Below are positions 41,953 through 43,854 of a stretch of 43,930 nt of DNA, in pieces; within the stretch, counting starts at the first letter, position 1, and each line of letters begins with the position of its first letter. The DNA is taken from the sequence record PP197160.1; one strand, 5' to 3'. The stretch comes from Escherichia phage phiHAO78-1. The position numbers and the translations under genes are program-made. A model generated the notes under the pieces. That model searched no databases and was not told where the DNA came from. It saw nothing but the letters and a program-made list of their open reading frames with translations.

Positions 41953-42340
41953 AATTGTGCCCCCCTTATAACGTTTGACGGGTTAGATTCTGGCGGAATG
42001 TAAACGCCCGCCTAAAACCCAACTCAAACGTCCCTAGCTCCGTGGTTGCTAGGATACCAGCAGTATTCGCCGCGCTCACTGGATACGGGAGCGACTGCCT
42101 TTGCACTTATCGGCTCAGGACTGCCAGCCTGCGAGTACGGCCCACTGCACAACCGTGGAAGGGACTCTACCTCTCGGCGCTATTCTTTTAAGGGGCAGCG
42201 CCTCAGCGCCCCCGCCGTTTGTCATCTCGGCCCTTGATGTTACATCTTAAATACTACTGATTATCTAGGGTTGGTCGTCATCATACCGATCAAGGTATTG
42301 GGCCTCACCGCAAACCAGCTTACTGCATCGTTCGCTATCT

Positions 42341-42369
42341 AAGCTACTAGGTGAATCCGAACTTGTCAA
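42341..42369 (-). promoter_or_regulatory. Candidate sigma70 early promoter (weaker)
   Basis: Minus strand TTGACA (42364..42369), 17-bp spacer, TAGCTT (42341..42346). Confidence 0.3.
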
Positions 42370-42686
42370 GCGTTATTTCTTACTACTTACTTGGTCTTCT
42401 GTATAGCACTTCCTCGTGCGCCTTAATTTGTAGTGTTCCCACTACCACAGGTTGAAGCCTTTTAATGTGCTGCTAATCACCTAGCCTGTGTTGTTCTATA
42501 CTGCTTGTTGGCTTTACTCCGCAATCGCCCTCGCGCCTTTCTGTCACCGCGAAATGTGTAGTGACTTGTACCGGAGGAATCGGCCCCTTATCTGCGTTAA
42601 GGTTCGCAATCTGCAATTTGCACTTAGCTGATTAGTATAGTGTCTACCCGCCTACAATCCTTGTGGGCTTCTTACTGCTGGGATTC

Positions 42687-42715
42687 AATCTAGCTTATGT
42701 CCTTCGCGGTGTCAA
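42687..42715 (-). promoter_or_regulatory. Candidate sigma70 early promoter
   Basis: Minus strand TTGACA (42710..42715), 17-bp spacer, TAGATT (42687..42692), in the non-coding leader upstream of the early genes. Confidence 0.5.
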
Positions 42716-43475
42716 CTCTTTTTATTGAGTATCTAACCCTTCACACCATCTAGCTTTAATCCGGTGGAGTCTCCCGACTCTACCCCGTTCAGCACCTCAG
42801 CGCCTCCCGGTGATTGAACTATAGCGCCAATAAACCAAAAGAAGCAAGCACTTTTTTAAACTTTTTATCACTGTGAGCAAAAAGGGTAAGCAGGGCAAAC
42901 ACTTAGCCAATGCTTCCATTCTAGGGATAGCTCTAGAGATAGCCCAATACTAGCCAATGCTACTCAGTGCTAACCAATGCTAACCAACACTACACGGCAC
43001 TACATATAGCAGAACGTAGCGACGTAACGTCAGTGAAGGAGCGTAGTGAAGCGGTGACTGTGTAGGTAATGCTTACTCCCTACGGTCGTAATATAGGGCA
43101 TTACTAGGGGATACTAGTGAGTAGTAGTGAGTAGTGTGTATGTAGTGCCCTAAAACCCTCCTACTCCTGTAACATCATTTCCAAATAGCTTTCGAATGAA
43201 AGTAAGCACAAGGGATAGCGCTGGATAGTGTGGTGTGGTGGAAGTGCGCCCTAGTGGGGAGCGCGCAGCGTAGCATATAATCGGCACAATGTAAAGCACT
43301 AGCGATAGCACTAGGGATAGCACCACGGCGCACTGGGCGGCCCACTCGGCACATACTATGGCCCACTACTGGCCCACTGGGCGGCCCGCTAGAGGTCCGC
43401 AAAATAAGCAAGGCAGAGCGCACCCCTATGGCCCACAGAGAGCACGCAGAGCACGCAGAGATAACCCCAGTGCCT

Positions 43476-43515
43476 CCCAGAGCTTCCCAGAGCTTCCCAG
43501 AGCTTCCCAGAGCCT
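43476..43515. repeat. Tandem repeat, 4 copies of the 10-bp unit CCCAGAGCTT
   Basis: Three exact copies and a fourth with one substitution (CCCAGAGCCT); preceded by a duplicated AGCACGCAG unit at 43441..43460. Confidence 0.85.
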
Positions 43516-43854
43516 CTATGAGTAGCACACAGTGATAGGCGTAGGGTAGCACTAGCAATAGCCAATAAGGCACGCAGGGAGCCGCTGAGGCCTCCTAGAG
43601 CGCACTAGCTGGCCCTAACTGACCCTCCCAGTGCCCCCCCCCTCATTTATACGCTAGGCACCCCCTATGGGGGCACTGGGGCGCGTTGAGGGTGAGGGAG
43701 GGCCTCGCGTGAGTCTAACAAATTTCGAGTTCAGGTATACACCTGCCCTGGGGTGAAGTCCTTGTGATGTTCCAGACACTTCCCTTGTACCCACTTACAG
43801 ATGTCATCGTAGGAGCTGTGCTTATTCATATAATGCTTCCCGTCCTTCCAGAAT

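Follow-up and report, generated by a model that had tools for sequence, protein, structure and literature searches.

A probable cis-acting end-control region in the gene-free left end of Escherichia phage phiHAO78-1

What does a stretch of almost 1.9 kb without a credible gene do at the end of a phage genome? The question is raised by positions 41953..43850 of Escherichia phage phiHAO78-1 (PP197160.1), whose whole 43,930-nt sequence is the window analyzed here. An initial annotation had described this flagged region as an unusually long non-coding left end, with promoter-like sequences in its proximal part and dense repeats in its distal part, and had compared it with the ends of T7-like phages. 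Our analysis supports, with a probability of about 0.75, the interpretation that it is a cis-acting end-control region of a KP34-like (T7-type) phage genome. This interpretation builds on homology, repeat boundaries, repeat statistics, the pattern of conservation and covariation within one RNA element, module B. A role of the repeats in packaging or replication is plausible by analogy.

The minus strand carries all long open reading frames (ORFs) of the window, and the coding part is 88-94% identical to Drulisvirus genomes (KP34-like phages of the Slopekvirinae, Autographiviridae). Its closest relatives comprise three Escherichia phages, Minorna, AV102 and EC22.5-2, together with Klebsiella phage KPV811. 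The flagged region aligns to more than 270 phage records with an identity of 72-83%, below that of the coding DNA. Judged from these similarities, the window is a complete Drulisvirus genome in reverse-complemented and circularly permuted form, with the phage left end at high coordinates. The features described below are accordingly given on the minus strand.

The terminal repeat had been placed at the ends of the window, where positions 19-94 and 43855-43930 are identical over 76 bp. The evidence does not support this placement. The match begins in a homopolymer, C16 at one end and C14 at the other (the G14 run at 43855-43868), the 16 nt preceding it differ at four positions between the two ends (1-94 versus 43839-43930), and positions 1-16 have no match elsewhere in the genome. 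The match looks like an assembly overlap at the homopolymer rather than a terminal repeat, and the contig ends apparently sit at a homopolymer that is hard to sequence. Homology instead puts the physical left end at 43697/8, approximately 233 bp inside the window end, and predicts a direct terminal repeat (DTR) of 282-283 bp at 43416..43698. Four independently annotated DTRs serve as anchors (KP34, 216 bp; KpV475, 243 bp; JKT5, 290 bp; fHe-Kpn01, 222 bp). All four begin (C)CCTCACCCT and end ...GGTGCGCTC, and the window has both edges, at 43697/8 and 43416, its own predicted repeat starting (C)CCTCACCCTCAACG and ending GGGGTGCGCTC. For fHe-Kpn01, restriction analysis, Sanger sequencing of ligated fragments and PhageTerm were used to map the termini, which are blunt (PMC7291057). 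In addition, KP34 and KpV475 have, directly before their right DTR copy, 48-60 bp that match positions 43699-43746 of the window, and at least seven deposited genomes start at the equivalent of 43696-43698. The boundaries of the predicted repeat are homologous to those of mapped repeats of the genus and are flanked by homologous right-end and left-end unique sequence; the repeat is single in the window because assemblies collapse both copies.

Read along the minus strand, 43930-43699 would be the last unique DNA of the right end. This tail (43699..43930) precedes the right DTR copy in the virion, lies outside the left end and runs on into window positions 1-192. The flagged region is therefore not left end throughout: its outermost part, 43699-43850, comes from the right end, and it encloses the DTR. 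The tail includes a conserved junction flank of 41 bp, TATACCTGAACTCGAAATTTGTTAGACTCACGCGAGGCCCT, at 43699-43739. Only positions 43635-43735 are still detectable in other genera, in phiKDA1, Buco and Pectobacterium phage Clickz_B3, and the match in phiKDA1 is annotated there as 'right direct repeat'. Retention of this junction between the right-end flank and the DTR start across genera is what would be expected of a terminase recognition or cut site. The corrected genome ends matter for annotation, for phage rebooting and engineering, and for reading the output of PhageTerm-type programs.

The predicted DTR combines boxes shared with T7 and variable insertions. A palindrome, CCCCCATAGGGGG, occupies 43661..43673 (DTR nt 26-38), within an inverted repeat (CCCAGTGCCCCC/GGGGGCACTGGG, 43627-43638 and 43669-43680; 12 nt, 100% complementary), and is followed by a G9 run at 43634-43642 that all relatives keep at a length of 9-15. 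The 13-mer stands at the identical offset, nt 26-38, in the terminal repeats of T7 and KP34 and in the window, and at nt 25-37 in fHe-Kpn01; its equivalent in SP6 is TCCCCATAGGG at about nt 28. The extreme ends begin (T/C)CTCAC, and CTCAC is likewise found in T7. The inner edge (43400..43442) comprises CTCTCTGTG at 43434-43442, the DTR end GGGGTGCGCTC at 43416-43426 and a T-rich box, TGCCTTGCTTATTTTG, at 43400-43415; the island 43404-43431 has 93% column identity in 10 genomes. CTCTCTGTG lies shortly before the inner edge in T7 (nt 147-155, where the repeat ends at nt 160), in KP34 and in the window. The window has both hallmark boxes of the T7 repeat: the palindrome, located some 26 nt from the end, and, close to the inner edge, CTCTCTGTG.

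The insertions were resolved with Tandem Repeats Finder as CCCAGAGCTT x4.8 at 43466-43513 and AGAGCACGC x2.4 at 43439-43460, listed on the minus strand as GGGAAGCTCT and GCGTGCTCT. The 10-bp array is missing from KP34, has two copies in IK_ECO1 and EC22.5-2, and occurs as an 11-bp variant in ZH5 and SFN6B. This array and a 9-bp duplication vary as insertions, which explains the spread of DTR lengths from 216 to 290 bp. With the DTR at 43416-43698, the 4.8-copy array, the AGCACGCAG duplication and the inverted repeat lie inside it and not adjacent to it. As a separate observation, Minorna, KPV811, IK_ECO1, EC22.5-2, ZH5 and SFN6B carry CGTCTAGACGTCTAGA or a near variant after the DTR G-run, where the window has no insert. 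We take this sequence to resemble tandem MetJ 'met boxes' (AGACGTCT).

The repeat density of the distal kilobase is far above chance, and every repeat reported there was recovered. Positions 42840-43850 contain 106 exact 8-mer pairs, compared with 12.1±4.3 (maximum 29) in 300 dinucleotide-preserving shuffles, and 47 10-mer pairs compared with 0.9. The distal kilobase is the top 1-kb window for repeats genome-wide (score 103; genome median 14), while the proximal part is close to background and weakly repetitive (16 versus 7.2). Outside the DTR, Tandem Repeats Finder reports TAGTGAGTAG x2.1 at 43115-43135, CCAATGCTAA x4.4 at 42944-42987, as well as units of 12 bp that contain GATAGC (42920-42943 and 43295-43323); GGCCCAC occurs four times. 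The tetranucleotide CTAG reaches a density of 15.7 per kb in the repeat region, five-fold that of coding DNA (2.8 per kb).

In a ten-genome alignment, 43415-42870 resolves into near-invariant islands (43404-43431, 43242-43302, 43144-43205 and 42879-42900) alternating with 9-12-bp tandem arrays. The fast-evolving arrays between the islands span 42944..43378 and consist of GGCCCAC units at 43326-43378, CTACTCACTA x2 at 43115-43135 and TTAGCATTGG x4.4 at 42944-42987. Array copy number and unit sequence vary among the relatives at every array site. The conservation in relatives by which the repeats were to be judged is therefore split: the arrays vary in unit and copy number, but the islands and a 15-bp motif are kept genus-wide.

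This motif, GCTATCNCTAGTGCT, occurs five times with at most one mismatch, at 43548-43562 (in the DTR), 43307-43321, 43295-43309, 43205-43219 and 42929-42943. All five copies are on the minus strand, and the 43.9-kb genome holds no further match at this threshold. All of the 11 relatives carry it in 3-7 copies (at most two mismatches) at corresponding positions: one copy in the DTR, then a cluster with 12-bp spacing and later copies before the promoter P1, with none downstream of the promoter P2 (both described below). The copies in the relatives are co-oriented except for a single reverse-strand match in KpV475. Invariant islands and a motif fixed in place and orientation suggest that at least part of the region is under selection.

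The 61-bp island at 43242..43302, 97% identical genus-wide, contains a candidate extended -10 promoter, P0 (TTTACA-N14-TGC-TACGCT, 43267-43295), whose variable positions are confined to the spacer, and a hairpin, GCGCTC-CCCACTA-GGGCGC, at 43246-43264. A generic sigma-70 scan did not call P0, and its activity is something we infer. The second island (CTTACTTTCATTCGAAAGCTA...GATGTTACAGGAGTAGGAGGGTTTTAGGGCACT, 43144..43205) has 98% column identity over 43144-43177. Within that stretch lies TTAGGGCAC, which presumably resembles a K11/T7-type phage promoter core. A phage-polymerase promoter at this site was rejected, as neither its 17-mer nor its 8-mer recurs in the genome beyond chance.

Three predicted host promoters follow the repeat-dense part. 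P1 (TTGCTT-N18-TATAGT, 42818-42847) has an upstream A-tract at 42851-42866 and is absent from the published promoters; its -35 and -10 blocks are 95-98% conserved, while eight spacer positions vary between relatives. P2 (TTGACA-N17-TAGATT, 42687..42715) agrees with the consensus at 10 of 12 positions and begins 984 nt away from the start of the DTR. Its homologues are the promoter annotated at 931-959 in KP34 and host promoters given for the genus in Eriksson 2015, Table 3 (PMC4411677). P3 (TTGACA-N17-TAGCTT, 42341..42369) is homologous to the second promoter annotated in KpV475 and to TTGACAAGTTCTGATTCACTGAGTAACTT of the same table (PMC4411677). Measured from the physical end, P1 and P2 are at 852-1012 nt and P3 is at about 1330 nt, so that hexamers 17±1 bp apart and facing the early genes are clustered in the leading 1-1.4 kb. 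A literature search found no transcriptome paper on Drulisvirus.

These elements suggest a working scheme for the end region, in which terminase binding, promoter use and the function of the RNA modules are what we infer. Replication would produce concatemers, in which the terminase most likely cuts at the edges of the DTR (43698-43416), with both edges and the CCCCCATAGGGGG palindrome acting as conserved T7-type signals and the repeat being duplicated. The platform at 43415-42870, with its GCTATCNCTAGTGCT copies, most likely binds the small terminase subunit for packaging initiation, in the manner of pacB of T3 and T7. On the first DNA to enter the cell, host RNA polymerase would use P1, P2 and P3, so that early genes are expressed and the rest of the genome is pulled in as in T7. 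A leader of about 860 nt would then run to gene 1, and a variable cassette site in this leader appears to have acquired two RNA modules in phiHAO78-1. The repeat edges, the T7-identical palindrome and the 15-bp motif could thus be candidates for concatemer recognition and cutting in KP34-like therapeutic phages.

Comparison with known systems places the region within a shared architecture. The left ends of KP34, fHe-Kpn01 and KpV475 are homologous to it end to end, with the same DTR edges, islands, P2/P3 and first gene. They differ from the window in the length of the non-coding stretch (1274-1447 bp, compared with 1746 bp), in their shorter DTR (283 bp in the window, the excess being due to the 4.8-copy 10-bp array) and in their lack of a 276-bp two-module cassette. 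The distance of 1746 bp from the DTR start to the gene-1 ATG is the longest among 10 genomes; the nine relatives range from 1274 to 1666 bp, so the region can be called long but is no outlier. Much of the excess is explained by the 276-bp insert between P2 and P3.

The T7-like comparison made at the outset also stands. The T7 left end has the same order of terminal repeat, short arrays right after the repeat, three tandem sigma-70 promoters and first gene, its annotated elements being 13-bp-period arrays at 174-340, A1-A3 at 498-750 and gene 0.3 at 925. In the window, short direct arrays likewise begin 38 nt inside the repeat edge (43326-43378) and extend as far as 42944. T7, SP6, phiKMV and the KP34 group all have a burst of short repeats within their first 300-600 nt. 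However, T7 and the window share no detectable homology beyond short boxes (CCCCCATAGGGGG, CTCAC and CTCTCTGTG). The T7 arrays are built from CCTAAAG-like units with a 13-bp period, to which the units found here (GGCCCAC, GCTATCNCTAG, CTACTCACTA and TTAGCATTGG) are unrelated. Two further features of T7 were not found in the window: phiOL, a promoter for the phage polymerase, and, at the repeat edge, the pause box ATCTGTT (class II), which SP6 also has. The promoters are farther from the end in the window (850-1360 nt) than A1-A3 in T7 (498-750 nt). In T7, approximately the first 850 bp reportedly enter the cell unaided, after which transcription by host RNA polymerase is said to draw the genome in, according to Molineux and co-workers.

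During T7 packaging, the small terminase subunit gp18 recognizes PacB and gp19 cleaves at PacC (PMC9860248). The conserved DTR edges and the motif platform of the window occupy places equivalent to pacB and pacC of T3 and T7, and as far as testable the window has no sequence similarity to pacB. In work attributed to Fujisawa and Morita (1997), pacB is said to lie to the right of the terminal repeat. A DTR, gene-free DNA and sigma-70 promoters in this arrangement are known already from the genus and from T7. To our knowledge, three features are apparently undescribed in the literature: the presence of the exact T7 palindrome at the T7 offset, the 15-bp motif found throughout the genus, and module B together with the site of its cassette.

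Several points weigh against reading the whole region as end control. The physical ends of phiHAO78-1 are placed solely by homology. We know of no Drulisvirus experiment that ties the 15-bp motif or the islands to terminase or another protein, nor of a proven role for the T7 arrays, whose CCTAAAG-like unit is different. The tandem arrays vary freely among close relatives, and an HNH endonuclease gene is inserted in the otherwise gene-free left end of some Klebsiella Drulisviruses, for which reasons much of the DNA in the region may be dispensable. The carriers of the HNH insertion are phi1_066010, VIPKPNTPH08/10, RothI and K66PH128C1. Among the promoters, the -35 hexamer of P1 matches the consensus at only 3 of 6 positions, which explains why the generic scan missed it. 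That scan found two sigma-70 sites in the region, a number at chance (2.4 in shuffles), and its terminator count was at chance as well. The promoter calls therefore rest on conservation and on homology to published predictions, which sustain the proposed sigma70-like promoters of the proximal part where the site count does not.

The variability of the arrays leads to the main alternative to end control, in which the distal repeats arose by slippage in a spacer that tolerates them and their sequence has no specific function. Function would then be confined to the DTR edges and promoters, and all that the spacer would have to do is put gene-free promoter DNA in the first ~1 kb entering the cell. 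This explanation, which we regard as possible but doubtful, accounts well for array units and copy numbers that differ at every site among 10 relatives, for a DTR ranging over 216-290 bp, for the HNH insertions and for a regional identity of 72-83%, below the 88-94% of coding DNA. It does not account for islands of 22-85 bp that are conserved at 93-98% genus-wide, above coding DNA, or for a motif present 3-7 times per genome at corresponding positions, co-oriented in all but one case and never downstream of P2. The same motif copies, 12 bp apart in clusters, might instead be iterons of a replication origin beside the terminal repeat, with the A-rich tract at 42851-42866 as the unwinding element and a function like that of phiOL, a secondary replication origin of T7. 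Direct repeats clustered in one orientation, a nearby A/T-rich tract and the equivalent position of the T7 phiOL phage promoter fit such an origin. However, T7-type origins are primed by transcription and work without iteron-binding initiators, we know of no Rep-type initiator in Drulisvirus, and no promoter for a phage RNA polymerase was recognized in the region. The cumulative GC skew is monotonic without a switch, although little signal is expected in a T7-type genome. An iteron origin is thus unlikely.

Two further explanations would make the region the template of a product. If P0 is active, the distal region could give rise to a non-coding RNA that contains repeats, such as a decoy or a mimic of an antitoxin in the style of the ToxI repeats. 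The invariance of the P0 hexamers and TG extension next to a varying spacer, together with the structured RNA (module B) in the downstream leader, is in keeping with this. Nevertheless, we consider it quite improbable: with a length of 9-12 nt and a sequence that changes from relative to relative, the units do not resemble those of the ToxI type (36 nt), no toxin partner is evident in the region, the -10 hexamer of P0 is weak (3/6), there is no Rfam match, and the DTR, upstream of P0, already holds one copy of the motif and several arrays. Small proteins, which several GenBank records annotate here, are a very remote alternative to the end-control reading. ORFs of 25-132 aa do exist on both strands, and annotated examples include K2044-K1-1 ORF1, Minorna_057, a CDS within the DTR of JKT5 and, in Hope and KP-C01, between nine and twelve hypothetical proteins. 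Yet no ORF of at least 35 aa is retained in more than about half (5-6) of 10 genomes, in agreement with the initial annotation, which had seen no credible ORF, and the annotated 'hypothetical proteins' disagree in position and strand between records. Indels come in 9-12-bp units, mostly not multiples of three, and the longest ORF, a 132-aa GTG ORF at 43175-43573, crosses arrays that differ in copy number between relatives. A 32-aa ORF at 43731-43829 has an in-frame stop in Minorna. For fHe-Kpn01, virion mass-spectrometry data were searched against all ORFs, including non-annotated ones, yet no gene is annotated before nt 1438 (PMC7291057). The small 'hypothetical proteins' annotated here in several records are probably spurious. 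ARAGORN found no tRNA or tmRNA in the region, and Rfam 15 gave no match there at E <= 1; four relatives gave only chance-level miRNA and snoRNA matches.

The end-control reading includes a leader whose content changes between relatives. The gap between P2 and P3 holds the 276-bp insert of the window (42392-42667), which consists of two modules, and in relatives it holds none, 85, 88, 160, 250 or 276 bp. The site is empty in KpV475, K2044-K1-1 and SFN6B, holds 88 nt in EC22.5-2 and AV102, and carries unrelated inserts in IK_ECO1, ZH5 and Minorna. Module A (42484..42667) is missing from most relatives, including KpV475, K2044-K1-1, SFN6B and KP34, but Klebsiella phage Hope (95%) and Shigella phage Buco (85%) have it as well. 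Its three sequences show five compensatory pairs, whereas its folding energy is no better than that of shuffles (z = +0.69). A stable fold therefore lacks thermodynamic support, and the case for module A as a structured RNA is weak.

Module B (42399..42494) is a structured RNA of about 95 nt, recognized by covariation and by a covariance-model match of 96 bits. Its fold consists of a closing helix around an invariant loop (UAGGUGAUUAGCAnCACnnUAAAAGGCUUCAA) with an inner hairpin, followed by a GGAA-tetraloop hairpin and a third hairpin. Across seven distinct sequences, compensatory changes affect nine of the 21 predicted pairs, and pairing is kept in 98.6% of cells; the observed values are not reached in any of 500 shuffles, slid controls give at most 3, and the folding z-score is -2.4. 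No Rfam family matches it. It is present, unannotated throughout, in 28 phage records, 27 of them named Escherichia phages and one without a given host. The carriers include EC22.5-2, AV102, a Drulisvirus-like metagenome contig and unrelated 77-kb phiEco32-like phages (phiEco32, SU10). Searches of E. coli genomes with module B, and of 185,579 prokaryotic species genomes with its core, gave no match, and a host origin of the cassette was rejected on these grounds. The covariance model found no additional or divergent copies, and the cassettes of IK_ECO1, ZH5 and Minorna are unrelated to it. A soil-metagenome match to the core (L021) covers the loop only and was dismissed as probably due to chance. 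The metagenome contig UZAT01155769.1 (42.8 kb; L022 36-240 and L024 11652-11856) has two tandem divergent copies after a P3-type promoter, one window-like and the other phiEco32-like.

The phiEco32-like phages (Gordonclarkvirinae: phiEco32, SU10, EK010 and EP335) share with the window the invariant 34-nt loop and all helices of module B, while the helix sequences differ through compensatory changes. Their copy lies directly after a promoter, about 50 nt downstream of a strong TTGACA-N17-TAATAT, in a gene-free region of approximately 2 kb. The window copy, in contrast, follows module A about 190 nt from P2, and it is the only exception among all carriers to a position within ~60 nt of a strong host-type promoter. 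Tentatively, and with somewhat less than even confidence, we propose that the P2-P3 gap is a hot spot for swapping early-transcribed RNA cassettes and that module B is an undescribed structured phage RNA that has moved between Autographiviridae and phiEco32-like Gordonclarkvirinae sharing the E. coli host. Its distribution and position suggest that module B may have a host-specific role in takeover, in transcript processing or antitermination, or in counter-defence. The HK022 put antiterminator RNA and the T7 R0.3 RNase III site are folded RNAs just downstream of early host-type promoters; module B is likened to them by position and possible action only, as similarity in sequence or structure is not established and membership is not claimed. 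The cassette site and module B provide a lead on non-coding RNAs of the first minutes of infection.

Other parts of the early transcripts also show structure. A hairpin, GAGTC-GGGA-GACTC, lies in the P1 transcript at 42767..42780, with two covarying pairs in 10 genomes (for example, GAGCC...GGCTC). The 5′ leader up to gene 1 (41953..42340) contains a GC hairpin at 42192-42212 and a Shine-Dalgarno-like sequence, AAGGGGGG, at 41960-41967; with a folding z-score of -2.1, the P3 leader is moderately more stable than its shuffles. A CsrA sponge acting through GGA-containing hairpin loops was rejected, with GGA at 12.8 per kb in the leader versus 20 per kb in coding DNA. The non-coding region is ended by the first gene (41737..41952), which encodes a 71-aa homologue of KP34 gp1 and has 84-89% nucleotide identity to gene 1 of the relatives. 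The 188 nt before this gene (41953-42140) exist in two unrelated versions among the relatives, the long one in the window, KpV475, JKT5, IK_ECO1, ZH5 and K2044-K1-1, and one of about 70 nt in EC22.5-2, Minorna, SFN6B and KP34. This segment may be a second leader cassette site.

At the opposite end of the window, positions 25-400, which cover the 3′ end of the tailspike gene (193-2127) and the sequence downstream of it, match unrelated E. coli phages (ASO78B, 89%; PD114, 93%; PhAPEC5/7, 74%), and GC content over 1-2000 is 0.41-0.44. The matches indicate a probable swapped receptor-binding module and an E. coli host. Long G/C homopolymers occur at different sites in different members of the group; IK_ECO1, for example, has a C12 run at 1533-1544 where the window (~42300) has GGCC. 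A C11 run (G11 on the coding strand) at 41705-41715 lies in the loop of a genus-wide motif, AGCCTATAGCATCCTAT-Gn-TGCTATGTGAA, in which all eleven relatives have GGGG; it may reflect a genuine expansion of the homopolymer or an error of sequencing. This motif was proposed as a phage promoter or nick site in Eriksson 2015 (PMC4411677). A second copy of the conserved motif, AGCCTATAGCGTCCTACGGGGCGCTATGTGAA, with a normal GGGG loop, is located at ~40903-40937, the position of the second KP34 site.

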